From: a virus
Strand: one strand, 5' to 3'
Length of the DNA stretch: 53,575 nucleotides
Virus record (IMG/VR): IMGVR_UViG_3300009285_000009
Location: 1 to 53,575 of that record
In this document: positions 3,693 to 53,575 of the stretch, piece after piece
Numbering within the stretch: the stretch's first letter is position 1
How the letters are laid out: each line of letters begins with the position of its first letter
Position numbers and translations under genes: made by a program
Notes under the pieces: generated by a model
Told to the model about the DNA's origin: nothing
Database searches by the model: none
Seen by the model: the letters and a program-made list of their open reading frames with translations, nothing else

Positions 3693-4292
3693 ATGCCGAA
3701 GAAGATAAAAGCAAGGAAGAAGCCCTACGTAAGCGTAGCAGTAATACCGCCCATAGAAGAACGCAAGAAATGGCAAAGGGTTAATTGGGATACTGTAGCA
3801 TCAGCATATATTACCCGTGATGATTTGCCATCATATGATTACTTGGCTAAGGAATTCGGTATCCACGTAAGCAGTATGCAACGGGTAGCCCACAGAGAAG
3901 ATTGGATAACCCAGAGGAAGATATATTGGGAAAAGGTGGGCATAAAGATGCAGGAAAAGGCAAGCAATAAAGTAGCCGAAATGCGTGCTAAGAATATAGT
4001 TATAGCAAATAAGGCGTTAGAGTATCTGGGGGAATTATTACAGAATAAGTCATTGAATGGGTCTATTAGTGATATAGATAAGATTATCCGCACAATAGAA
4101 TACCTGAATGGCAATCCTGATAGCAGACCTGATGGCGGTGGCTCATTTGAAGAATTCCTTAAACGATTAAATGCTGAACGCAGGAAGGCATATAAGGATT
4201 CAATGGGAGTGAATAATGTGATTGATGTTACGGTAAGCAAAGGGGAAGACGATGATACTGGTAAAAGACCTGATAAGCCAGATAACAAATAG
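3693..4292 (+). CDS. terminase small subunit candidate
   Basis: Basic N-terminus, HTH-like YDYLAKEFGIHVSSMQRVAHRE, acidic tail; positioned upstream of the large terminase; positional call only. Confidence 0.5.
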   Translation: MPKKIKARKKPYVSVAVIPPIEERKKWQRVNWDTVASAYITRDDLPSYDYLAKEFGIHVSSMQRVAHREDWITQRKIYWEKVGIKMQEKASNKVAEMRAKNIVIANKALEYLGELLQNKSLNGSISDIDKIIRTIEYLNGNPDSRPDGGGSFEEFLKRLNAERRKAYKDSMGVNNVIDVTVSKGEDDDTGKRPDKPDNK

Positions 4293-4500
4293 GGCGGTAG
4301 GGTATATACCGTGCTTTGATGAATGGCTTCTGGCACATAAGGGTAAGCCGTTAGCCATAAGGCATAGTGTGATTAATAGGGTAAAGGATTGTATATGTGT
4401 TGCCGAGGTATATACGATAATCTGTAGTTGCAATGAATGCGGTGATGAATATACGGTGATATTGGAGTATAAAATAAATAATAATCCTATAAATACTTGA
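4252..4500 (+). CDS. hypothetical Cys-rich 82-aa protein
   Basis: ATG 4252 after aagggga RBS; overlaps previous gene by 41 nt; CICVAEV..CSCNECGDEY. Confidence 0.35.
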   Translation: MILVKDLISQITNRAVGYIPCFDEWLLAHKGKPLAIRHSVINRVKDCICVAEVYTIICSCNECGDEYTVILEYKINNNPINT

Positions 4501-4524
4501 CAAAACTAAAAATAAGTATAATAT
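4497..4524 (+). promoter_or_regulatory. sigma70-like promoter P0 (TTGACA-16 nt-TAATAT)
   Basis: -35 TTGACA 4497..4502, -10 TAATAT 4519..4524; upstream AATAAT..ACTTGACAA resembles the early-promoter box. Confidence 0.5.
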
Positions 4525-4527
4525 GGG

Positions 4528-4640
4528 TATTATGAGAGCAATGGGTATAACAGAAATAAAAATAAATCAAAGGGGGCGTGGTGCATTTCCTGTATCACAC
4601 AGAAAAACCTATTGCTCTCACAATAAGTAACCACGCTCCC
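4528..4640 (+). ncRNA. structured 5' leader with interleaved stems (pseudoknot-like), copy 1
   Basis: S1 4528..4542 pairs with 4611..4625 (14 bp, 1 mismatch). S2 4572..4582, inside the S1 loop, pairs with 4630..4640 (11 bp, one G-U). 4-nt junction. Confidence 0.45.
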
Positions 4641-4665
4641 ATTATCACTGAAAGGACACATATAT

Positions 4666-6369
4666 ATGATAGAATCCTTAACTTCCGAGCAGGAATTAAA
4701 ATTAAAAGAATACGAGGATAAGTGGACGGCAATCGGTCTGGATACTACGCAGTTTAATGAATCTATCGCAAGACCGATTATCAATAATTTGTATACCGAG
4801 ATATTAGATTACCCTAAAAACCCATTTTTATATATTGCCGAATCCCCGATAGAGGCGTGGTTTGCAGTGATGTTTTTGTATTCTATAATTGAGGACGCTA
4901 AGGTCTGGGATAAGGTCGGGGATAAGGTCGGGGCTAAGGTCGGGGCTAAGGTCAGGGCTAAGGTCGAGGCTAAGGTCAGGGATAAGGTCAGGGATAAGGT
5001 CGGGGATAAGGTCTGGGCTAAGGTCAGGGATAAGGTCGGGGATAAGGTCTGGGCTAAGGTCTGGGATAAGGTCAGGGATAAGGTCGGGGATAAGGTCTGG
5101 GCTAAGGTCTGGGATAAGGTCAGGGCTAAGGTCGGGGATAAGGTCAGGGCTAAGGTCTGGGCTAAGGTCGAGGCTAAGGTCGGGGATAAGGTCAGGGCTA
5201 AGGTCGAGGCTAAGGTCAGGGATAAGGTCAGGGATAAGGTCGGGGATAAGGTCTGGGCTAAGGTCAGGGATAAGGTCGGGGATAAGGTCTGGGCTAAGGT
5301 CTGGGATAAGGTCAGGGATAAGGTCGGGGATAAGGTCTGGGCTAAGGTCTGGGATAAGGTCAGGGCTAAGGTCGGGGATAAGGTCAGGGCTAAGGTCTGG
5401 GCTAAGGTCGAGGCTAAGGTCGGGGATAAGGTCAGGGCTAAGGTCGAGGCTAAGGTCAGGGATAAGGTCAGGGATAAGGTCGGGGATAAGGTCTGGGCTA
5501 AGGTCAGGGATAAGGTCGAGGCTAAGGTCAGGGATAAGGTCAGGGATAAGGTCGGGGATAAGGTCTGGGATAAGGTCTGGGCTAAGGTCAGGGCTAAGGT
5601 CTGGGCTAAGGTCGAGGCTAAGGTCGGGGATAAGGTCAGGGATAAGGTCTGGGATAAGGTCAGGGATAAGGTCGGGGATAAGGTCTGGGCTAAGGTCAGG
5701 GATAAGGTCGGGGATAAGGTCGAGGCTACTTTACCAAATTTTATATACCCCAACATAGATGGGAATTTCTCAGTAAATTATTTTGCTTTTTATGATTTTA
5801 TGCAGGAAGTAATTGGTGTTGAAATATATAATCTCGTAGGGTTATATAATATATACAAGGATACGACTAAATTATCGTTAATTTATCCCTTTGAGGATTG
5901 GTGTGTTGTATGCCAGAAGCCAACAATTATTAATCTTAAAAATAATGAACTTCACAAAGACGGAGGAATGGCTTTAGAATATAGCGATGGTTTTGGATTG
6001 TGGTGTCTTAACGGAACATCTGTAAGTCAAGAAATTGCAGAAACTCCGGCAGAGAAATTACCAGCCACTTTAGTATTGTCTGAAAAAAACGCAGAAGTTC
6101 GGCGTGAGATAGTCAGGAAAATAGGTATAGAGAGGGTCTGCAAAGACCTTAACTCCAAGATTATAGATACAGGAATAGACCATAAGGGCAACTTATGTGA
6201 ATTGCTTGTGCTTGATATTGGGGACGGCAGACAAAGACCATTTATCAAACTGGTAAATCCAAGTATCGGATGTTATCATATAGAGGGGGTGCATCCTGAT
6301 TGTGACACGATTGAAAAAGCATTTAACTTCAGGAATGGAACAATAGAAAAACCAATTTTATTAACTTAA
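4666..6369 (+). CDS. DUF6745-like protein carrying a 69-unit [D/A]-K-V-[G/R/W/E] tetrapeptide array
   Basis: aaagga RBS. N-terminal LTSEQELKLKEYEDKWTAIGLDTT; C-terminal LHKDGGMALEYSDGFGLWCLNG...NAEVRREIVRKIGIERVC, recalled from the bacterial DUF6745 family. Central perfect tetrapeptide periodicity. Confidence 0.85.
   Translation: MIESLTSEQELKLKEYEDKWTAIGLDTTQFNESIARPIINNLYTEILDYPKNPFLYIAESPIEAWFAVMFLYSIIEDAKVWDKVGDKVGAKVGAKVRAKVEAKVRDKVRDKVGDKVWAKVRDKVGDKVWAKVWDKVRDKVGDKVWAKVWDKVRAKVGDKVRAKVWAKVEAKVGDKVRAKVEAKVRDKVRDKVGDKVWAKVRDKVGDKVWAKVWDKVRDKVGDKVWAKVWDKVRAKVGDKVRAKVWAKVEAKVGDKVRAKVEAKVRDKVRDKVGDKVWAKVRDKVEAKVRDKVRDKVGDKVWDKVWAKVRAKVWAKVEAKVGDKVRDKVWDKVRDKVGDKVWAKVRDKVGDKVEATLPNFIYPNIDGNFSVNYFAFYDFMQEVIGVEIYNLVGLYNIYKDTTKLSLIYPFEDWCVVCQKPTIINLKNNELHKDGGMALEYSDGFGLWCLNGTSVSQEIAETPAEKLPATLVLSEKNAEVRREIVRKIGIERVCKDLNSKIIDTGIDHKGNLCELLVLDIGDGRQRPFIKLVNPSIGCYHIEGVHPDCDTIEKAFNFRNGTIEKPILLT
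4897..5724. repeat. 69 tandem copies of the 12-mer G[A/C]TAAGGTC[G/A/T][G/A]G with a 240-nt higher-order unit
   Basis: 828 nt / 12 = 69 units. 4947..5278 is identical to 5187..5518 (offset 240). All three forward/reverse frames are open as a consequence. Confidence 0.95.
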
Positions 6370-6385
6370 AAGAAAGGGGTATAAA

Positions 6386-6685
6386 ATGTTATACCAACAA
6401 GGCGATGTGATTTTGGAGACGGTGGAAATGATACCGGAAAACCTTAAAACCCATAATGGCGTAATCGCAGAGGGTGAAACTACCGGACACGCCCATCGGG
6501 TGGATTTGAGCGGAGTGGATGTATTCGTGGCTGATGATGGAACTCTTTATTGTGAGGCGATGAAAGAGTTTACCATAACCCACGAGGAACATAAACCCAT
6601 TACCTTGCCGAAGGGAAAATATAAGGTTCGTAAGGTGCTGGAATATGACCACTTTGCGGAGGAGGCAAGAGTGGTAAGGGATTAA
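6386..6685 (+). CDS. conserved small phage protein (QGDV...GETTGHAH motif), function unknown
   Basis: aaagggg RBS; 99 aa; the QQGDVIL and GETTGHAHRV pattern is common in phage hypothetical proteins (recalled). Confidence 0.7.
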   Translation: MLYQQGDVILETVEMIPENLKTHNGVIAEGETTGHAHRVDLSGVDVFVADDGTLYCEAMKEFTITHEEHKPITLPKGKYKVRKVLEYDHFAEEARVVRD

Positions 6686-6695
6686 AAAGTGGTGT

Positions 6696-8306
6696 ATGTT
6701 TAAGTTACCAGAATTAACAACGCCGATTGATTACCGCACATTAGGAAAATACGAAGATATATTCAAACGCCCGGCAAGGTATATCCAGAAATTCCTATGG
6801 ATTAAGAATAAGCATTCTGATATTATACCGTTTTTCTTTAATTCTACACAAGTAAGATACCGGCGGATGAAGCGGATAGAATTAGCAAAGGTCAGGGTTG
6901 TTAACCCTTACGCTAAACCGCATTACCTGGTGCTTAAATATAGGCAGGGCGGAATCACCACAGAGGAACAGGGTGAGAATTTTCATCTCATAGCAACAAA
7001 GGAAAACCAGAATTGCATAACACTGGCGCACGATAAGAAGACAACCGAAGAAATATTTGATATAGCCCAGTTATTTGACCGCAACCTTACGCCCGAAATA
7101 AGACCTAAACGGGACTGGGATAATAAGTCAGAGATAGAATATAAGGGGCTTAATTCCAAGTTTCATATCGGCACAGCGGGTAATACGAGTTTTGGCCGTG
7201 GGCAAACATTCCAAAGGGTTCATCTATCTGAAGTGCCGCTTTATGGCAGGAAAAAGCATCAACATACCATCAGCATATCTGACATACAGAATCTAATATC
7301 AGGCATACTCAGGGCGTGTCCTTATGGCGATGTGGTGGCAGAGGGGACAGGCCAGGGCGCAAAGGGGTGGTTTTATCAGACCTGGAATGAGGCGAAAAAG
7401 AGTAAGTGCCGAAATGGATGGATACCGATATTCCTGCCGTGGTTTATTGACCCACTGAATAGTATGCCATTATTATCCGGCGAGGATATAGAATATACCG
7501 ATGAGGAAAAGATATTAATCAGTAGGGCGAAGGAAAATTATGGCGTAGATATGAAACCGGAACAAATTAAATGGCGCAGGTTTATGAAAGAAGAGGAAAA
7601 ACTCTTTGACCAGGAATTCCCGGAGGACGATATTACGGCCTTTATGGTCTCCGGTTCATCCAAGTTTGATATGTTGATATTAAGGGATTTGGTTAAGGAT
7701 TGCGCCAATCCGGTTGAAGAAAAGATACTTGACGGCGGTAGTTTACTTCAGTGGGTTAAGCCGATAGCCGGTAGGCGGTATGTTATAGGCGCAGATGTAG
7801 GCGAGGGGCTGGCTAATTCTGATTACTCAACTGGGACGGTGCTGGATTACGAGACCTGCGAGCAGGTAGCCCGGCTAATGGGGCGATGGAAGCCGGAAGT
7901 ATTCGGGGTTAAACTGGCTAACCTGGGATTGATGTATAACAAGGCATTGATTGGAGTAGAGGCGAATAACCACGGACATAGCACTCTGAATACTTTGCTA
8001 AATACTTTACACTATCCACGATTATATTATCATAAGAACTATGACAATACTGGCGGCCAACAACTGGGCTGGCAGACCAATGCCAAGACGAGGGATTTAT
8101 TGATAGGCGAACTAAAAACAGCCATAGAAGAATACCTAATGAAAATAAATGATACAGAATTTATTGACCAGTGTATGACATTTCAGGATGATGGGACAGG
8201 CAAGTATCAGGCAGAAGAAGGTTGCTTTGACGATTTGGTTCTGGCATATGCAATTGCTTGGCAACTGCGAAAAGTCCACGGCATAAGTCCGAGAATAACC
8301 ACATAG
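6696..8306 (+). CDS. terL: terminase large subunit
   Basis: 536 aa; ATPase-type KYRQGGITTEEQ segment, LSEVPLYG, C-terminal nuclease-like IGADVGEG and FDDLVLAYAIA. Confidence 0.85.
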   Translation: MFKLPELTTPIDYRTLGKYEDIFKRPARYIQKFLWIKNKHSDIIPFFFNSTQVRYRRMKRIELAKVRVVNPYAKPHYLVLKYRQGGITTEEQGENFHLIATKENQNCITLAHDKKTTEEIFDIAQLFDRNLTPEIRPKRDWDNKSEIEYKGLNSKFHIGTAGNTSFGRGQTFQRVHLSEVPLYGRKKHQHTISISDIQNLISGILRACPYGDVVAEGTGQGAKGWFYQTWNEAKKSKCRNGWIPIFLPWFIDPLNSMPLLSGEDIEYTDEEKILISRAKENYGVDMKPEQIKWRRFMKEEEKLFDQEFPEDDITAFMVSGSSKFDMLILRDLVKDCANPVEEKILDGGSLLQWVKPIAGRRYVIGADVGEGLANSDYSTGTVLDYETCEQVARLMGRWKPEVFGVKLANLGLMYNKALIGVEANNHGHSTLNTLLNTLHYPRLYYHKNYDNTGGQQLGWQTNAKTRDLLIGELKTAIEEYLMKINDTEFIDQCMTFQDDGTGKYQAEEGCFDDLVLAYAIAWQLRKVHGISPRITT

Positions 8307-19600: not shown

Positions 19601-21127
19601 ATGCCTGAATATACTGTTGATTATAAACCCAATGAGGCAATAGCCAAACTTGCCAAGGAACAGGAATTAGGCAGGCCAATAGCCGATTGGGGTTGCATAG
19701 GCGTTGATTGTAAGCAGGAAAAGCGCAGGTGCGTATATTTCATCAATAGGGGTAACTGTCATAAATTATTAGAGCTGGGGAAATGTATGGCGCAGGAATC
19801 AAAATTAAAGCAGATAGGTTCGTTTCTAAACGCCCTTGGTATAAAACCTATTATTAATATTCCAGAATCAGAACCTGAAATAAAAAAGGTTGACATTCAA
19901 GTTGTAGAACCGAAACAAATAGAGGCAGGTAAGCCGGAAGACAAGGTAAACTATAAGGTGACACTAACCAAAGACGGGTTGGGATTCAGACAGGCGTATA
20001 ACGATAGCCCTGAATCATTATCTGAATTCGTAAAGAAACCGGTTGAAAACACGGTTGATTATAATCCACCTCTTGACCAAGGCGGGGTGGTAGGGAGATG
20101 CGTTGAGAATCCTATGCCATTATCAGGGTTTATAAAAGACGGTAAAGAGGCAGATAAAGGCATACTTATCATACGTGCGCAGGGGGGCGTGGGTGATATA
20201 CTTAATACCCGGATGATATTTGAGGACATAAAGAAAATGGCCGGGGGCAGGAAAGTAACCTATGCCGTGTCGGAAAAGTATATCCCGTTACTAACAGACC
20301 ATCCGCATATAGATAAAGTCATATCAAGGTATGATATTAAAAAGGAAGAATATGCCTTTGTCAAGGACATAACCGATAAGTGCGGGCAATACGAAGTCAA
20401 GCATATCCCATTCGTAGATAAACACAGAGCCGATATATGGGCTAATTATGTTGGGCTTGATTTAACTACCCACGAACAGCATATATCGTTTACCAAAGAA
20501 GAAACCAAAAAGGCCAAGAAACTGATGGGCAAGGCCAGGTTAAAGATAGGGATACAGCCGATAAGTTCCAATATATCAAAGGACTGGGGGTTGGTTAAGT
20601 GGCAGGAATTAGTCAACCTGATAAAGAAAACCTATAAGGGCGTTGAGGTATTCTGTTATCACGATAAGCCAATAGAGGGGCTTACCGGCGTTACCGGATT
20701 ATACAATCTTAACCTGCGGGAATGGATGGCCTCGGTAAATGAATGTAATGTTTTACTAACTGTAGCAACCTCAATGTTCTGCTTGGCTAATGGACTACAC
20801 AAGCCGACCGTGGCTATATTCGGCAGTGAGGATTTGGACATTTACGGCAAATACTTCCCTGAAATGGTAGCAATTCAACGCCATCGGAAAAATAAAGACG
20901 GATGGGATGAATGCCCGTGCTGGTCGGCCTGGCGTAATTGCGCAAAGGGTTCTGATATTAGCATAGAAAACCAAAAGATACCGCCGTGCTTAACAAGCAT
21001 AAGCGTAGATGAGGTAATGAAAGGTTTTGAGCAATGCCTAAGAAATTCGGGGCTGATTACTACGATGAGGACTACTTCACGAAAAGAGGGGTTCGTGGGT
21101 GGTATGATAAAAGTGCTTTCGCATTAG
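19601..21127 (+). CDS. GT9 (heptosyltransferase-like) glycosyltransferase with Cys-rich N-terminal extension
   Basis: ATG 19601 just after previous stop; ILIIRAQGGVGDILNT and NVLLTVATSMFCLANGLHKPTVAIFGSED match GT9 signatures; N-terminal CIGVDC..RRC..GNC..GKC. Confidence 0.7.
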   Translation: MPEYTVDYKPNEAIAKLAKEQELGRPIADWGCIGVDCKQEKRRCVYFINRGNCHKLLELGKCMAQESKLKQIGSFLNALGIKPIINIPESEPEIKKVDIQVVEPKQIEAGKPEDKVNYKVTLTKDGLGFRQAYNDSPESLSEFVKKPVENTVDYNPPLDQGGVVGRCVENPMPLSGFIKDGKEADKGILIIRAQGGVGDILNTRMIFEDIKKMAGGRKVTYAVSEKYIPLLTDHPHIDKVISRYDIKKEEYAFVKDITDKCGQYEVKHIPFVDKHRADIWANYVGLDLTTHEQHISFTKEETKKAKKLMGKARLKIGIQPISSNISKDWGLVKWQELVNLIKKTYKGVEVFCYHDKPIEGLTGVTGLYNLNLREWMASVNECNVLLTVATSMFCLANGLHKPTVAIFGSEDLDIYGKYFPEMVAIQRHRKNKDGWDECPCWSAWRNCAKGSDISIENQKIPPCLTSISVDEVMKGFEQCLRNSGLITTMRTTSRKEGFVGGMIKVLSH

Positions 21128-21693
21128 ATAATCAATTCCATAAGCAGGTGGCGGAAATGATTATTGATGTGATACAGCCGAAGAATAGTATCGCCTTATC
21201 AATAGGTTGTGCGCTGGGTAATGTGGTTTATTGGCTTAACAAATTGGGTATCAATGCCTTTGGCGTTGATATATCCGAGTATGCGATAAAACATTCGCAC
21301 GTGCCGGATAGGGTTATGCTGGCTGATATAACGGAAAAGATACCGTTCCCGGATGGACACTTTGATTATGTGTTCAGCCGTGAAACGTTGGAACATATAG
21401 CGGAAGAAGAAATCCCGCAGGTATTAAAAGAAATATTTAGGGTAATGAAGCCGGGCGGAGTAGGGTTATTATCCCCGGCCAATAACTTCTGCGATAAGGA
21501 AGCCAAGAAGCAGGTGCAGGGGAATGACAGCGCAGATATAAGCCATATATGCGTTAAATCGCCTTACTGGTGGGCTAAACGGTGCGAGGAAGCCGGGTTT
21601 ACGATAGATTATGAACGAACCTTATATGCTATGAGCAACGGGCTGGCTTATAAGTTTTATTGGTCAACCGTGGTGATAAGGAAACCATTATGA
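21034..21693 (+). CDS. class I SAM-dependent methyltransferase
   Basis: LSIGCALGNVVYWL (motif I), FDYVFSRETLEHI, MKPGGVGLLS; 94-nt overlap with GT9 gene. Confidence 0.75.
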   Translation: MPKKFGADYYDEDYFTKRGVRGWYDKSAFALDNQFHKQVAEMIIDVIQPKNSIALSIGCALGNVVYWLNKLGINAFGVDISEYAIKHSHVPDRVMLADITEKIPFPDGHFDYVFSRETLEHIAEEEIPQVLKEIFRVMKPGGVGLLSPANNFCDKEAKKQVQGNDSADISHICVKSPYWWAKRCEEAGFTIDYERTLYAMSNGLAYKFYWSTVVIRKPL

Positions 21694-41246: not shown

Positions 41247-41837
41247 ATGATTAATAGAAGAATCCATAGCATATCAACAAGGAATAAAATAAAACTGGCT
41301 CTTATGGGACATCTTGTATCGGAAAAAACTCGGAAAAAACAGAGAATGGCTAAATTAGGCAAACATCTTTCCGATGACCATAAACGAAAGATAGGGGATG
41401 CGAGTAGAGGACATATTGTAAGCGAAAAAGTAAGAAGGGAAATAGGAGATGTTCATAGAGGAATGATTCATTCTAAAAAATCCCGTAAAATGATGAGTAT
41501 AACCCATAAAAAAATGTATGCACTTGGGATAAATAGACCACCACCAAGAAAAGGCATTAGAACATCTACCACGATGAGTCAAAAGGAATATGAAAGACGA
41601 GTAATGTATTCATCTATAGAATGGCAAACTATACGAAAACAAGTTTATAAAAGAGACAGATATACTTGTCAGATTTGCGGAATAAGATTTCGTGACCATA
41701 AAGGAAACGGAATGAATGCCCACCATATTATACCATACCGTATTAATAAGGACAACTCATTAGAAAATCTTATAACTTTATGTAATTCGTGTCATAGAAA
41801 AGAAGAAGTAAAATACTATAATTCTATTAAAGTATAA
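41247..41837 (+). CDS. HNH homing endonuclease with NUMOD3-like repeats
   Basis: GHLVSEKTRKKQ / GKHLSDDHKRKI / GHIVSEKVRREI repeats; YTCQICG...NAHHIIPY...LCNSCHRK. Confidence 0.85.
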   Translation: MINRRIHSISTRNKIKLALMGHLVSEKTRKKQRMAKLGKHLSDDHKRKIGDASRGHIVSEKVRREIGDVHRGMIHSKKSRKMMSITHKKMYALGINRPPPRKGIRTSTTMSQKEYERRVMYSSIEWQTIRKQVYKRDRYTCQICGIRFRDHKGNGMNAHHIIPYRINKDNSLENLITLCNSCHRKEEVKYYNSIKV

Positions 41838-42117
41838 TTAAAAGGTGGCTATTTCCAAAATATTCAAAAAGAAACCAGATAAAAAATAAAAGCCCGCTTC
41901 CACGGGTATATCCCTCTCTTTCGGTGGGGTGGCTGGTAAGTGGTTTGCCGGTCACCTCGCCACCCATTTCCTCATTTAGGCAATAAAAATCTTTTATTTT
42001 TAAGCATATTTATTAAAACGGCGTAAGCACCATCGCTAAAAACGCCACGAATACCGCATAAAACAAGGGTTATAGGGTTTTAGCCCTCTCGGATTCTCCA
42101 AGGGAATATTTTGCAAT

Positions 42118-42161
42118 AATAATATTATTTTACTTGACAATTTGTCAAGAATGGTTATAGT
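42118..42161 (+). promoter_or_regulatory. early promoter P1 with 23-nt conserved box and palindromic -35 region
   Basis: Box AATAATATTATTTTACTTGACAA 42118..42140; -35 TTGACA 42134..42139; -10 TATAGT 42156..42161 (16-nt spacer); palindrome TTGACAATTTGTCAA 42134..42148. Confidence 0.6.
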
Positions 42162-45286: not shown

Positions 45287-45330
45287 AATAATATTATTTT
45301 ACTTGACAAATAATAAGATTATGCTAAAAA
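45287..45330 (+). promoter_or_regulatory. early promoter P2 with the same 23-nt box
   Basis: AATAATATTATTTTACTTGACAA 45287..45309 identical to P1; -35 45303..45308; extended -10 TGcTAAAAA 45322..45330. Confidence 0.55.
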
Positions 45331-48223: not shown

Positions 48224-48547
48224 ATGGGTAAATATACTAATGGAGTTACCGGCAGGCATTGTTCTGAATGCGGTGAACCATTCCTAAAGGATGAAACGAT
48301 AAGGCATAGTATTTGCCCGGCGTGTGAAAAGAGATTAAAAGAAGAACATAAGGATACCGCCCCGGTAATTACTGTGAATTGCCCTGATTGCGATGAAATC
48401 CCTAATGCACCGATGGCTATTAGTTACCTTAAATTATTCAATAGATGTTGGGATTGCGATAAGCACGATTGGGAGCGTGGGCAGATGCCATTAAAGGATT
48501 TTGAAAAGCGGGAACAGCAGGCGTTAGATGATGCCTGCAAAACATAG
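48224..48547 (+). CDS. hypothetical zinc-ribbon protein
   Basis: gaggag RBS; CSECG..CPACE..CPDCD..CWDCD. Confidence 0.55.
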   Translation: MGKYTNGVTGRHCSECGEPFLKDETIRHSICPACEKRLKEEHKDTAPVITVNCPDCDEIPNAPMAISYLKLFNRCWDCDKHDWERGQMPLKDFEKREQQALDDACKT

Positions 48548-48595
48548 AGAGGATATAAGCGGTTGCTTAACACTAAAAGATTTATCGGATTTTTA

Positions 48596-48623
48596 TTGAC
48601 AAATAATACTATTATCCTATAAT
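48596..48623 (+). promoter_or_regulatory. promoter P3 (TTGACA-16 nt-TATAAT)
   Basis: Consensus hexamers at 48596..48601 and 48618..48623. Confidence 0.65.
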
Positions 48624-48629
48624 GACGGA

Positions 48630-48738
48630 TGTGAATGAAATGAGTAATAATCTTAAACAGATAATCAGCAGGGATAGGGCAGGAAGCAGGTCAATTTATT
48701 GCTTGTTTCATTCACACTGTTCTATACCCTGCTTTTTT
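48630..48738 (+). ncRNA. interleaved-stem structured RNA ending in a U-tract, copy 2 (leader or discrete small RNA)
   Basis: S1 48630..48650 pairs with 48696..48716 (21 bp, 3 G-U). S2 48667..48677 pairs with 48722..48733 (11 bp, one bulge). TTTTTT run spans 48733..48738. Confidence 0.5.
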
Positions 48739-48745
48739 ATTTAAT

Positions 48746-49399
48746 ATGCCACAAAAGGTATTTCCCGATTCAAGGGGCAAGGCCAGTATAAGTCAATGCC
48801 TAATGTGTGGGAAAAATATTAGAATAATACCGGCCATGGTAAGACAGGAAAAAGGTAAGTTTTGTTCCCGCAAATGTGTGTGGCAATGGAGTTCTAAAAA
48901 TAGGAGTGGGATAAATAGTCCTGGATGGAAGAGGCAACTAAGGCAATGTAAGGAATGCGGCAATAATTTTTATGCCCTTATCTCACAGATTAAAATAGGG
49001 AGCGGTAAATTCTGTTCAAGAAAATGTAAAGGGAAGGGACAAATAAAAAGATTAATAGGTAATAGATATGGATGGAAGGGTGGCTTAACTCCGGCAAGCA
49101 CATTAATCCGTTCTTCAGATAAATACAAAAATTGGCGTTCACAAGTATTCATCAGGGATAACTTTACCTGTCAGAAATGCGGAGATAGTACAGGTGGAAA
49201 TTTAGAAGCACATCATAAACGAGGATTTAGAATATTAATGAGGGAGGCACACGAATATATGCCCTTGTTCTCATTATATGCCGCTTGTATGATTTATGCC
49301 CCGCTATGGGATATTAACAATGGTAAGACACTTTGTAAAAAATGCCACGATGAAACGAGAGGAAGCATTTATGCCAGAAGAAAATATAACGATAGATGA
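48746..49399 (+). CDS. HNH homing endonuclease
   Basis: KYKNWRSQVFIRDNFTCQKCG..LEAHH..PLFSLYAACMIYAPLWDINNGKTLCKKCH; two GKFCSRKC zinc-knuckle repeats; no SD upstream. Confidence 0.85.
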   Translation: MPQKVFPDSRGKASISQCLMCGKNIRIIPAMVRQEKGKFCSRKCVWQWSSKNRSGINSPGWKRQLRQCKECGNNFYALISQIKIGSGKFCSRKCKGKGQIKRLIGNRYGWKGGLTPASTLIRSSDKYKNWRSQVFIRDNFTCQKCGDSTGGNLEAHHKRGFRILMREAHEYMPLFSLYAACMIYAPLWDINNGKTLCKKCHDETRGSIYARRKYNDR

Positions 49400-49745
49400 A
49401 ACAATTACACACGAAGAAAGAATGCTTAATTTTATAATAAGTTCTGGGGGTATTGTTAACACAATTCAAATCCGTAGATATGGGTTAGAAAATGGCATAT
49501 TGCAAGCAGATAGAAGAGTGAGGTGTTTGCGACAGAATTATCCCAATGGCTTTGATAAATTCGGGTATCCTGATATATGCTTGGATAGCCGGGATATTAA
49601 CCCAACCGAAATGAACCAGTGGGGCATTAAATGCAAACGGATAGCGGTTTATTTCATTAAGCCGGTTGAAGCCCAGCCGATAACGAATGAAGGCGTGCAA
49701 CTTAATCTGCCCGAATCTGTTAAAATGGGAAATACTGTAGCGTAA
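49371..49745 (+). CDS. hypothetical protein
   Basis: ATG 49371 after gagaggaag; track start 49296 lies deep in the HNH gene. Confidence 0.5.
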   Translation: MPEENITIDETITHEERMLNFIISSGGIVNTIQIRRYGLENGILQADRRVRCLRQNYPNGFDKFGYPDICLDSRDINPTEMNQWGIKCKRIAVYFIKPVEAQPITNEGVQLNLPESVKMGNTVA

Positions 49746-49823
49746 TAAGATATTAAAAACTAACTCAAAACTATTTAATTGGAAGGACGACTAATATGCC
49801 AAAGAATACTGAAAGGAGGTCTT

Positions 49824-50210
49824 ATGCCAGAAATAAAGAGTTGTGAGAATTGTATCAATGAATATAAGTTCAGGCGTGAGAAGGTATGCTTGGAGTGCGA
49901 CTTTCTGCACGCAAAGAAGAACTGGCAACCCAAACCAGACGAAATGATTACAGTGGAAACCACAATCTTAGAGCAGGATAATATGACAGGGGAACTGTGT
50001 CACAAAGAAATTATGATTGAAGTTTCCACCGCCCAACTCCATTCACTCGGCTATTATAAACTTAATGAGGTGGAGATTGATATTGATTATTTAACAAGAG
50101 TTTTTTGTAAATGGGATAATTCTATTCCGACCAAAATTTTGAGTGGGGATAGAAAAGAAATAGTTGATGTTATAGTAAAAGCCAACCCAATCAAACCTAA
50201 AAACAGATAA
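49824..50210 (+). CDS. hypothetical protein with N-terminal CxxC pairs
   Basis: aaggagg RBS before ATG 49824 (track uses TTG 49779); CENC...CLEC. Confidence 0.55.
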   Translation: MPEIKSCENCINEYKFRREKVCLECDFLHAKKNWQPKPDEMITVETTILEQDNMTGELCHKEIMIEVSTAQLHSLGYYKLNEVEIDIDYLTRVFCKWDNSIPTKILSGDRKEIVDVIVKANPIKPKNR

Positions 50211-50343
50211 AGAATTTGAGTAACTATTCTTACGGTATTGTTTGTGGAAGTCTACACTGGTTTGTGTCTGAAAAAGAACTTTCTGAACCACCTAAACAGT
50301 TGAAATATAAGGTGGGGGATATGGTAATTTAATATCTTTAATA

Positions 50344-50388
50344 AATAATATCATTTTACTTGACAAATTGTTTGATTTTGTTTAATTA
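50344..50388 (+). promoter_or_regulatory. early promoter P4 with the 23-nt box (1 mismatch)
   Basis: AATAATATCATTTTACTTGACAA 50344..50366; -35 50360..50365; -10-like TAATTA 50383..50388. Confidence 0.55.
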
Positions 50389-50411
50389 TCGCCAGAAGGA
50401 GAGAGATACTA

Positions 50412-50666
50412 ATGACCAAATGGAATAAAACAAGAACAAGCCGGATGCCATCTAATCAGCAGAAGGTTAGGATGTGGCTGGAATCTAATGACCGCAAGCC
50501 GTGTTACTTGGCTAAATTAACCAAGGTTACCCGGACGACCATTAGTTGTTTTCTGCAAAATAAGTATGTTAGTAATAATGTGCTTATCAGGATTTCAAGG
50601 GCAACAGGGCTTCAAATGGAATTGACCTTTGGAGACCATAAGCAAAAGATTAAACTGGGAAAATAA
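50412..50666 (+). CDS. Cro/XRE-type HTH regulator candidate
   Basis: aaggagag RBS; CYLAKLTKVTRTTISCFLQNK helix-turn-helix-like segment. Confidence 0.65.
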   Translation: MTKWNKTRTSRMPSNQQKVRMWLESNDRKPCYLAKLTKVTRTTISCFLQNKYVSNNVLIRISRATGLQMELTFGDHKQKIKLGK

Positions 50667-50681
50667 TTATTTACTAAATGC

Positions 50682-50708
50682 TTGACAAACATTTTAATAT
50701 AATATATC
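50682..50708 (+). promoter_or_regulatory. promoter P5 (TTGACA, -10 ambiguous)
   Basis: TTGACA 50682..50687; AT-rich TATATC 50703..50708 at 15-nt spacing; weaker than P3. Confidence 0.4.
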
Positions 50709-50717
50709 CTAATTTTA

Positions 50718-50829
50718 TGACAAGGATATACGGCGTAACAGTACACTCAATGAGGCGGGGAAGCAATTCGTCTAAACAACCATTTGCTATATGTCCTTGT
50801 CAGACACCTCGCCTCACTTTTCTTATTTT
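50718..50829 (+). ncRNA. interleaved-stem structured RNA ending in a U-rich tract, copy 3
   Basis: S1 50718..50730 pairs with 50790..50802 (13 bp, one G-U). S2 50751..50760 pairs with 50807..50816 (10 bp, one G-U). Followed by CTTTTCTTATTTT. Confidence 0.45.
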
Positions 50830-51414
50830 ATGAGAGAAATTATCACCATAGTGGCATATAAGCAATTCGTTAAGAGCAACACCGATAATGCTATTACTCT
50901 TCACGGCACATCTATCAGGGCTGATATGGGATATAGGGCTTTATCGCCTATGGCTAAATTAATGTTTTTTAACGCTCTATTAATATCTAATAAAGACGGA
51001 AAGTTATACCATACATTCTCTGACAACCCATACACCGCAGAAGAATTAATTAGGTCTGTAAGTAGTCATAACAATCGCAACGATTTATTAGGTAAGGCAT
51101 TTTTAGAATTGATACATTATGGGCTAATTCATTCCAATATTAAATATGACAGGGTTAGTAAAATCGCACACGATAAATATTCTACAGATTGGACTGAAGA
51201 TTTAAGAATGGCTGTTAGAAAAAGGGACGGTTATAAATGCAGAGTATGCAGTAAAGACGGTATACAGGTGCATCATATTGATTATAATAAATCTAATTGC
51301 GACCCTGGAAATCTCGTTACATTATGCTCCCGATGTCATAACAAAACAAACATCCGGCGTGAGTATTGGAAGAAATATTTTACAGAAAGAAAAGATAATG
51401 CCAGACATTATTAA
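50830..51414 (+). CDS. HNH endonuclease with N-terminal putative DNA-binding domain
   Basis: YKCRVCSKDGIQVHHIDYNKSNCDPGNLVTLCSRCHNKT; track start 50791 lies inside stem S1, and ATG 50830 follows the U-tract as at 48746. Confidence 0.7.
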   Translation: MREIITIVAYKQFVKSNTDNAITLHGTSIRADMGYRALSPMAKLMFFNALLISNKDGKLYHTFSDNPYTAEELIRSVSSHNNRNDLLGKAFLELIHYGLIHSNIKYDRVSKIAHDKYSTDWTEDLRMAVRKRDGYKCRVCSKDGIQVHHIDYNKSNCDPGNLVTLCSRCHNKTNIRREYWKKYFTERKDNARHY

Positions 51415-52246: not shown

Positions 52247-52876
52247 ATGGATATAAATCAATATAAAGATAGCAGGAAACCGCTTAAAAAGGTTTTGACT
52301 ATACCGCCCAGATTTGAAGGCACTGCATTAGAGATAGACAATCAATGGTGTAAGGATTGGGTATTGCAGGCGGTTAATGGCAGGGTAAAGAAATCACCTA
52401 TGCTTGCCGGGGCGACCGGGGTAGGGAAAACATATCAGTTGTATGCAATGGCAAACGAAATATGCAATATAGTTAATCAGCGTAATATAGACGAATGGAA
52501 TAAAATAATTGATTATACTTCGCCTGTTTACAAATATCCCCGGATGAAAATAATAACTGAAGTTGATTTATTTTATCGGATGCGGGAAGCCCCAAATCAG
52601 CAGGCGGAATGGCATCTGCTTAAAGATATAAGAACTATTGATATTTTATTGATTGATGACATTGGAACTGCTAATGCCGGTAATAAGGCATTAGAGACAT
52701 TATTTAATATATTAGATTGGCGGGGTAAAAACTGTTTGGCAACAGTTATAACTACCAATATGACTATTCAAGAAATAGCACAGGGGTATGGTGAAAAAAT
52801 AGCAAGTAGGATTATAGAAATGTGTAAGGTTATTATTATGAACGGTGAGGATTACAGGGTTAAAGATAACATATGA
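52247..52876 (+). CDS. DnaC/IstB-like AAA+ helicase loader
   Basis: Walker A GATGVGKT; Walker B LLIDDIG; follows the organiser gene. Confidence 0.8.
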   Translation: MDINQYKDSRKPLKKVLTIPPRFEGTALEIDNQWCKDWVLQAVNGRVKKSPMLAGATGVGKTYQLYAMANEICNIVNQRNIDEWNKIIDYTSPVYKYPRMKIITEVDLFYRMREAPNQQAEWHLLKDIRTIDILLIDDIGTANAGNKALETLFNILDWRGKNCLATVITTNMTIQEIAQGYGEKIASRIIEMCKVIIMNGEDYRVKDNI

Positions 52877-53538
52877 TAAAAAGATGCCCCATTTGTAACA
52901 AGAAAATTAGTAATAGGGCAAAGTATTGCTGGAAGCATTGTCACACCAAAGAATGGCGTGAGAAGAACGGAACAATTCATAGGAAACCTAATACACACAG
53001 ATTTTGTAAATCCTGTAATAAAAGGATAGATAGTCGTTCGGAATATTGTGCCATTCATTACAGGGAATATTCCGATTGGATTAAGAACCAGAGTAAGTCA
53101 CATATGGGGAAAACCCCCCGATTGGGAATGAAGCATACAGATAAAACAAAAAATAAAATTCGTGCGAAACAATTAGGTAGAAAATATTCAGTTGAAATTA
53201 ATAGAAAAAAGGGCTCTAAGGGAAATAGAAATCCTAATTGGAAGGGAGGGATAACAACCACCATTCAATTACTTAGACAGTGCGTGCAATACAAAAAATG
53301 GCGACAAGATATATTTATAAGGGATAACTTTACTTGTTGTGAGTGTGGGCAAAAAGGCGGATATTTAGAAGCCCATCACATAAAATTATTTAGTAAGTTA
53401 GTGCAGGAAGCAAGAAATTATATGCCATTATTCCCATTATATGACGCTTGTATGCTTTATACGCCATTATGGGATATTGATAATGGGATAACTTTATGTA
53501 AAAAGTGTCACGACAAAACTAAAAGAAAATCTATGTGA
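52873..53538 (+). CDS. HNH homing endonuclease
   Basis: ATGA overlap; NUMOD3-like GMKHTDKTKNKI; KKWRQDIFIRDNFTCCECG..LEAHH..PLFPLYDACMLYTPLWDIDNGITLCKKCH; its last 40 nt are repeated at 1..40. Confidence 0.85.
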   Translation: MIKRCPICNKKISNRAKYCWKHCHTKEWREKNGTIHRKPNTHRFCKSCNKRIDSRSEYCAIHYREYSDWIKNQSKSHMGKTPRLGMKHTDKTKNKIRAKQLGRKYSVEINRKKGSKGNRNPNWKGGITTTIQLLRQCVQYKKWRQDIFIRDNFTCCECGQKGGYLEAHHIKLFSKLVQEARNYMPLFPLYDACMLYTPLWDIDNGITLCKKCHDKTKRKSM

Positions 53539-53575
53539 AATTATAATCATATCCGGGGAAGATAGAAGGGTAAAA
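53499..53575. repeat. second copy of the 77-nt terminal repeat
   Basis: Identical to 1..77. Confidence 0.95.

Follow-up and report, generated by a model that had tools for sequence, protein, structure and literature searches.

What is the element that separates a promoter from an HNH endonuclease gene at positions 50682-50829 of this phage DNA, and what does it do to the gene behind it? An earlier note had described it as the second copy of an RNA with two interleaved stems and a U-tract, and had taken it for a functional RNA fold. To our knowledge, the control of free-standing homing endonuclease levels is known in detail only for T4-like phages.

The window, i.e. the whole stretch of 53,575 nt that was analysed, is a complete phage genome of ~53.5 kb from Rifle groundwater. 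Its ends share a 77-bp repeat (1-77 and 53499-53575), and the join between them is read across by an independent assembly, so that the genome is circular or circularly permuted and complete. All large ORFs lie on the + strand, and no tRNA or tmRNA was found. No phage in GenBank is similar to it; IMG/VR searches with HNH-A, the O-like protein, the Gp3-like protein and the initiator of a distant phage (L177) returned no relatives or only the query itself, and exact-protein look-ups recovered clonal Rifle contigs only, which differ by 0-4 SNPs, with 0 SNPs inside the elements. The closest TerL relatives in genome bins (loci L188-L190, 44-53% identity) are from Planctomycetota, including a Candidatus Kuenenia bin, which suggests a planctomycete host, although this is only a hint. 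The phage group is rich in selfish elements: in a related phage (locus L104), the terminase and portal genes are interrupted by inteins that include a LAGLIDADG domain (187-2838 and 3871-7104), and another relative (L105) has a TnpB/Cas12f-like gene (20778-21554). Two of the four HNH genes in the window (41247-41837 and 52873-53538) have no interleaved leader; one of these lacks an SD and follows an AT-rich gap, and the other is a paralogue of HNH-A that overlaps the end of the DnaC-like gene. Related phages are polymorphic or recombining at the HNH-A locus, since downstream of 49193 the window is identical to a contig of different sample origin (L013, 1-156) whose sequence for the N-terminal portion of the HNH gene is a different one.

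Every coordinate given earlier for the element at 50682-50829 (copy B; Table 1) proved right to the base when the sequence was read directly. Helix S1 has, as claimed, 13 bp with a single G-U pair (U50727-G50793), and is also present in the list of inverted repeats of the window (I20). Helix S2 has 10 bp, one of them G-U (G50758-U50809), and is joined to S1 by GACA (50803-50806). The start of the transcript, predicted from the promoter consensus only, is at about 50717. The element is flanked by an 84-aa HTH gene on one side and by HNH-B and an O-like gene on the other.

Table 1. Positions of the leader copies, their genes and other features discussed in the text; coordinates refer to the window unless the locus of a related phage (L023, L177) is named.
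Feature	Coordinates	Strand	Description
Copy A, whole	48596-48745		
Copy A promoter	48596-48623	+	TTGACA, 16-nt spacer, TATAAT (12/12)
Copy A S1	48630-48644 / 48702-48716	+	15 bp; encloses S2 5' arm
Copy A S2 5' arm	48668-48677	+	
Copy A S2 3' arm	48722-48732	+	one bulge; then 13-nt U-tract to 48745
Copy A upstream ORF	48640-48744	+	34 codons; TAA ends 1 nt before HNH-A ATG
HNH-A endonuclease gene	48746-49399	+	217 aa; no SD
Copy B promoter	50682-50710	+	TTGACA 50682-50687, 17-nt spacer, TATCCT 50705-50710; 10/12 match in promoter scan
Copy B S1 5' arm	50718-50730	+	
Copy B S2 5' arm	50751-50760	+	G-rich; within S1 loop
Copy B small hairpin P3	50762-50788	+	AGCAA 50762-50766 / TTGCT 50784-50788
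Copy B S1 3' arm	50790-50802	+	
Copy B S2 3' arm	50807-50816	+	4 nt past S1
Copy B U-rich tract	50817-50829	+	13 nt from S2 to start codon: CTTTTCTTATTTT
Copy B upstream ORF	50717-50833	+	38 codons; AUG at predicted 5' end; TGA overlaps HNH-B ATG (ATGA)
HNH-B endonuclease gene	50830-51414	+	194 aa; no SD
Copy C, whole	4497-4665		new copy
Copy C promoter	4497-4524	+	TTGACA, 16-nt spacer, TAATAT
Copy C S1	4528-4546 / 4607-4625	+	18/19 paired
Copy C S2	4572-4582 / 4630-4640	+	11 bp, one G-U; 4-nt junction AGTA
Copy C upstream ORF	4532-4630	+	32 codons; stop within S1-S2 junction
Copy C gene	4666-6369	+	567-aa (D/A)KVx-repeat protein with DUF6745; own SD
Copy D promoter	L023 3910		TTGACA
Copy D S1	L023 3944-3962 / 4015-4032		
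Copy D S2	L023 3989-3998 / 4035-4044		followed by U-tract
Copy D upstream ORF	L023 3967-4056		29 codons; TGA overlaps HNH ATG (ATGA)
Copy D gene	L023 4053 (ATG)		95-aa HNH protein
Copy E (probable) upstream ORF	L177 1007-1120		37 codons
Terminase, portal and capsid genes	6696; 11445; 15137		
Recombination/replication module	45-53 kb		
HNH genes (n = 4)	41247; 48746; 50830; 52873		starts
23-nt boxes	42118-42140; 45287-45309; 50344-50366		

Loci around TerL homologues were collected as relatives of the phage and scanned with purpose-made descriptors. Copy A, whose S1 (I1) is the longest short-range inverted repeat in the window, precedes HNH-A. Copy C was found from the list of inverted repeats (I4); it lacks a U-tract and has instead an SD (GAAAGGA) upstream of its gene, the product of which consists mostly of ~70 tandem tetrapeptides, (D/A)KV(G/R/W/E), followed by the DUF6745 domain. 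Copy C and this gene are absent from the nearest relative (L023, TerL 61% identical), where the flanking genes abut, and thus look like a moron-type insertion. The same relative carries copy D. What is probably a fifth copy (E) is present in a distant phage (L177, TerL 28%), with an 89-aa gene on one side and a DnaD-like replication gene on the other. The position of E matches that of copy B, which suggests that copy B once served replication genes and that HNH-B was inserted behind it later. The genes that follow copies A, B and D belong to three different, unrelated HNH families. The link to HNH genes noticed earlier is therefore real for A, B and D, but it is positional and not exclusive, since C precedes the 567-aa protein gene and E the DnaD-like gene.

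The order of parts is the same in all five copies, namely a TTGACA-type promoter, the S1 5' arm, the S2 5' arm, the S1 3' arm and the S2 3' arm, and so is the orientation relative to promoter and gene. In every copy, the predicted transcript start coincides with the S1 5' arm or lies only a few nt from it. The S2 helix is G/C-rich and 8-13 bp long, its 3' arm begins 0-8 nt beyond S1 (5/5 copies), and a U-tract follows it directly in A, B, D and E, but not in C. The stems, in contrast, have no sequence in common: blastn-short found no cross-matches among copies A-D (E was not in the comparison), and MAFFT alignments of the copies were not structure-consistent. The segment that the earlier note had pointed out in A and B (GGCRGGRAAGCA; GGC[A/G]GG(G)AAGCA) is really common to both, but is not enriched as a motif in the window; AACAG occurs in the first linker of A, B and C and is absent from D and E. 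The view that conservation is architectural rather than sequence-based is thus supported and can be extended from two copies to four or five.

The independent evidence for this architecture is its position and its rarity. An alignment of the stems comprises 23 pairs, all of them paired (92/92 stem cells) and 21 of 23 changed on both sides, but it is an illustration and no independent test, since the stems were selected because they pair, and four to five copies are too few for a proper covariation statistic. Pairing alone is likewise weak evidence, as a loose interleaved-stem descriptor found ~1.25 matches per 53 kb strand in Markov-simulated sequence. A strict descriptor (U-tract plus ATG, S2 and S1), run on both strands of ~0.8 Mb of metagenome loci, the earlier loci and the window, matched only B and D. 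An energy descriptor applied to 2.06 Mb gave -49 kcal/mol for D and -43 kcal/mol for both B and A, against -37 kcal/mol for the next match; 1.34 Mb of additional sequence contained nothing comparable. When the search was anchored on promoters and run over 3.4 Mb of related phage DNA, C, A, D, E and B came out as the top five of 24.

Each of the five leaders contains an ATG-started ORF of 29-38 codons that overlaps the stems and runs through S2, the S1 3' arm and the U-tract; that of copy C ends already in the S1-S2 junction. The stop codon lies on the HNH start or 1 nt before it in A, B and D. In dinucleotide-shuffled sequences with the stop fixed at the HNH start, such ORFs are rare (P = 0.014 for A, 0.012 for B and 0.016 for D; combined Fisher P = 2.7e-4), and 1.8% of shuffles reach the length observed in copy E. 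The ORF of copy C stops 36 nt before a gene that has its own SD, so that coupling is unneeded there. Copies A-D keep one reading frame across the S2 5' arm (AGG GCA GGA, AGG CGG GGA, AGG GGG CGU, GAA GGG CGU). The position of the AUG relative to S1 varies: in B and C it is at the outer edge and coincides with the predicted first base of the transcript, copy A has it in the inner part of S1, in D it follows the arm at a distance of 5 nt, and that of E is a loop position; the S1 5' arm of A and D holds the start codon or an SD-like GAGGGG. The peptides show no conservation, no obvious regulatory codons and no codon runs. The possibility that frameshifting fuses the upstream ORF with the HNH gene was considered, and no feature requires it. 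The claim of a functional RNA fold, in the sense of a non-coding RNA, is therefore doubtful and not supported in the form in which it was made, since the leaders carry these ORFs.

HNH-A and HNH-B lack an SD, as had been stated for ATG 50830: their anti-SD duplex energies (+2.2 and +1.9 kcal/mol) are the two weakest of 55 genes, the median being -6.0 kcal/mol. For HNH-B, an alternative ATG at 50791, which had been suspected to be wrong, sits inside the S1 3' arm. The upstream ORF, the absent SD, the spacing between S2 and the ATG (exactly 13 nt in both A and B) and the JGI gene call, which starts the 194-aa product at 50830, all favour a start at 50830. The HNH frames of copies A and D contain no start earlier than the called ATG. 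Matches to homologues reach only the C-terminal HNH part of HNH-B and do not inform the N-terminus. The annotation should be amended accordingly, with the start of HNH-B most probably at 50830 and with short ORFs inside the 'intergenic' regions.

The copies have folding z-scores of -2.7 to -4.4 and helix energies of -14 to -21 (S1) and -12 to -21 kcal/mol (S2). Once its 3' arm is transcribed, S1 is part of the minimum-energy fold in all five; with the S2 3' arm also present, the nested fold still contains S1 in B, C and D, whereas S2 replaces it in A and E. The nested folds are a long rod in A and E and a three-way junction in B, and in B, C and D they hold the S2 5' arm in small, weak inner hairpins, so that S1 might just as well oppose termination. 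S2 resembles an intrinsic terminator in that a G/C-rich helix is followed by a U-run (A, B, D, E), but its arms are 36-46 nt apart, whereas the loop of a canonical terminator hairpin has 3-8 nt, and a consensus terminator scan did not report the S2 helices.

Taking together the parts and their order, their recurrence in four to five diverged copies, the non-random upstream ORF and the absent SD, we tentatively read the element, with slightly less than even confidence, as a cis-acting 5' leader that combines a translation-gated attenuator with a translational coupler and limits accessory genes, mostly HNH endonucleases. Its purpose would most likely be to keep the expression of accessory genes low. 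A strong sigma70-type promoter would start the transcript at or a few nt from the S1 5' arm, which would hold or adjoin the initiation region of the upstream ORF. If no ribosome arrived in time, S1 would form first and bury this region; S2 would then close beside the U-tract, transcription would stop, and an RNA of ~110 nt would be released. A ribosome, once loaded, would translate both arms of S2, the S1 3' arm between them and the U-tract, and since a translating ribosome is proposed to prevent both helices, the polymerase would read on. The ribosome would stop on or next to the SD-less HNH start (ATGA or TAAnATG) and reinitiate at low efficiency. We infer that transcription terminates at the U-tract, that the upstream ORF is translated, that reinitiation follows, and which fold corresponds to the on and which to the off state. 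There are precedents: an intrinsic terminator is suppressed when ribosomes translate as far as its helix or across it (PMC4824070), and structured RNA, termination and overlapping ORFs from which translation reinitiates restrain phage homing-endonuclease genes (PMC2988022).

A description of this interleaved layout with a 5'-end clamp was not found in the literature consulted. It is conceivable, if rather doubtful, that the elements represent a previously undescribed family of 'pseudoknot attenuators', in which a 5'-end clamp over a leaderless or near-leaderless ORF start is interleaved with the terminator helix. If true, one fold would decide on termination, initiation of the upstream ORF and reinitiation on the SD-less gene, and would act as a ribosome-sensing valve that needs no ligand, moves together with accessory or selfish gene cassettes and may be common but overlooked.

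The order of arms is that of an H-type pseudoknot (5' arm 1, 5' arm 2, 3' arm 1, 3' arm 2) in all five copies, and S1 and S2 have no nucleotides in common. An alternative that we consider unlikely is a translation-independent, non-coding leader RNA in which S1 and S2 form together as one compact fold of the nascent transcript and the upstream ORFs are incidental; it would act by put-like processive antitermination, by a steric 'tug-of-war' with the terminator or by binding a phage factor. Both helices might coexist as a pseudoknot, as the S1 state and the S2 duplex sum to -37, -38 and -46 kcal/mol before any pseudoknot penalty; by this rough estimate, the pseudoknot is at least as favourable as the nested folds in B and C, which does not hold for A. 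An RNA of this kind would suit the promoter-proximal position, which is shared with putL of phage HK022 (PMC9378689), the location of B and E between an HTH regulator gene and replication genes, which corresponds to nutR/putR-tR1 in lambdoid phages, the place of copy C at the head of a late operon with internal hairpins (I18, I9), and the observation that structures just upstream of terminators can suppress them (bioRxiv 10.64898/2026.06.17.733018). It leaves unexplained why upstream ORFs end on HNH start codons that lack an SD, and a U-tract right after the last helix resembles a terminator, not an antiterminator. Neither the sequence nor the shape of the elements matches put, which consists of two tandem stem-loops and no pseudoknot, or any Rfam family.

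Helices at the 5' end are known to stabilise mRNAs. The elements might instead be insulating modules, with S2 and the U-tract as a plain terminator that keeps transcription out of the accessory gene, S1 as a stabilising 5' clamp, and the reading frame and the interleaving without function. This agrees with the U-tract in four of five copies and with the location of the elements at the borders of accessory cassettes, including that of copy C and its gene, which are missing in L023. We regard it as quite improbable, however, because an insulator with its promoter upstream of the terminator would mostly terminate its own transcripts, and because neither the interleaving in five of five copies with a junction of 0-8 nt nor the statistics of the upstream ORFs would be expected from it. 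A feature of the DNA itself (operators, an origin-related structure, or a homing or recombination site of interleaved inverted repeats) is very improbable in spite of the short palindromes over -10/+1 in several copies and the replication genes next to B and E, since the stem sequences differ completely among copies, which makes a common binding protein implausible, the G-U pairs of S1 and S2, which favour RNA of the + strand, would be A-C mismatches on the other strand, and the orientation relative to promoter and gene is fixed in every copy.

Among known systems, the translation-gated leader that we prefer resembles ribosome-mediated transcription attenuators. In the pyrBI attenuator, the leader ORF reportedly runs through the terminator. 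The trp and his attenuators share with the elements a promoter-proximal leader ORF and a G/C-rich helix with U-tract just before the gene, and a ribosome on the leader is expected to prevent the terminator helix (PMC4824070). Unlike in these attenuators, there are no regulatory codon runs and no classical overlapping, mutually exclusive antiterminator helix; the terminator arms are interleaved with a 5'-end helix, the stop of the leader ORF overlaps an SD-less start, and the targets are selfish or accessory phage genes and not biosynthetic operons. In T4-like phages, hairpins sequester the RBS of I-TevI, I-TevII, I-TevIII, segB and mobE, and terminators lie in mobE and segF (PMC2988022); there too, HNH or homing genes are restrained by structure, termination and weak reinitiation, and the position of the promoter decides which fold is formed (PMC2988022). 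By contrast, HNH-A and HNH-B offer no SD or RBS to sequester, S1 covers the start of the upstream ORF, and a dedicated promoter, an upstream ORF and two interleaved long-range helices are combined, also before genes other than HNH.

The put RNAs of HK022, antitermination RNAs encoded immediately behind PL and PR, are likewise cis-acting, ~70-110 nt long and near the 5' end of the transcript, with several copies at operon heads (PMC9378689), but are formed by two adjacent stem-loops of ~70 nt with conserved sequence and have neither a U-tract of their own nor an ORF (PMC9378689). No similarity between put RNA and the elements was detected. Rfam 15 gave no match at the gathering threshold in the whole window, and only sub-threshold chance matches to miRNA and snoRNA models around A, B, C and D at E<=10. 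The preQ1, fluoride and ZTP riboswitches and 'tug-of-war' designs also have interleaved helices that adjoin an intrinsic terminator; the elements differ from them by the absence of an Rfam aptamer match and by long (10-19 bp), sequence-variable helices with no conserved ligand pocket. In type III toxin-antitoxin systems (ToxIN), how much RNA is made per protein depends on the terminator, and the RNA folds into pseudoknots. The succession of promoter, structured RNA, terminator and protein gene is the same, but the proteins here are HNH DNases or unrelated to these, not ToxN-type RNases, and one copy has no terminator; tandem repeats are absent from 48500-50900 except for two trivial 10-nt duplications. 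HEARO/omega-RNA of the IscB type was rejected, as there is no Rfam match, the proteins have 95-217 aa with an HNH domain only, and no complementary targets were found. A guide or antisense role is also argued against, since besides the missing cross-matches blastn-short found no trans targets of the elements in either phage (window, L023).

A phage lineage that is uncultivated and not related to the T4-like phages uses a different, reusable module before three unrelated HNH families as well as before one or more further accessory genes. Should the model be correct, this would be a new terminator design, in which a 5'-end clamp separates the arms and a leader ORF reads them, and would provide both a search pattern for cis-regulators in phage dark matter and a compact synthetic part.

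Some minor features of the promoters were also observed. A palindrome, ATATCCT-N12-AGGATAT (50704-50729), spans the -10 box of copy B and the first bases of its S1 5' arm, and comparable short palindromes cross the -10 box and the first S1 bases at 4518-4533 in the window, 3930-3945 in L023 and 964-982 in L177. They could be operators or, alternatively, could form a hairpin that blocks the formation of S1 in transcripts reading in from upstream. A second promoter class is marked by an identical 23-nt box, AATAATAT(T/C)ATTTTACTTGACAA, with three occurrences against 0 expected by chance. The boxes head operons without the interleaved leader (the early region, the exonuclease/Gp3-like genes and the Cro-like HTH gene), so that the two promoter classes may be temporal classes, and the box is probably a shared operator or UP element. 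A perfect palindrome, TTGACAATTTGTCAA (42134-42148), provides two overlapping -35 boxes, one per strand, in the 390-bp gap after the late genes; a minus-strand terminator (41893-41906) adjoins this region, which could be a divergent promoter or switch region.
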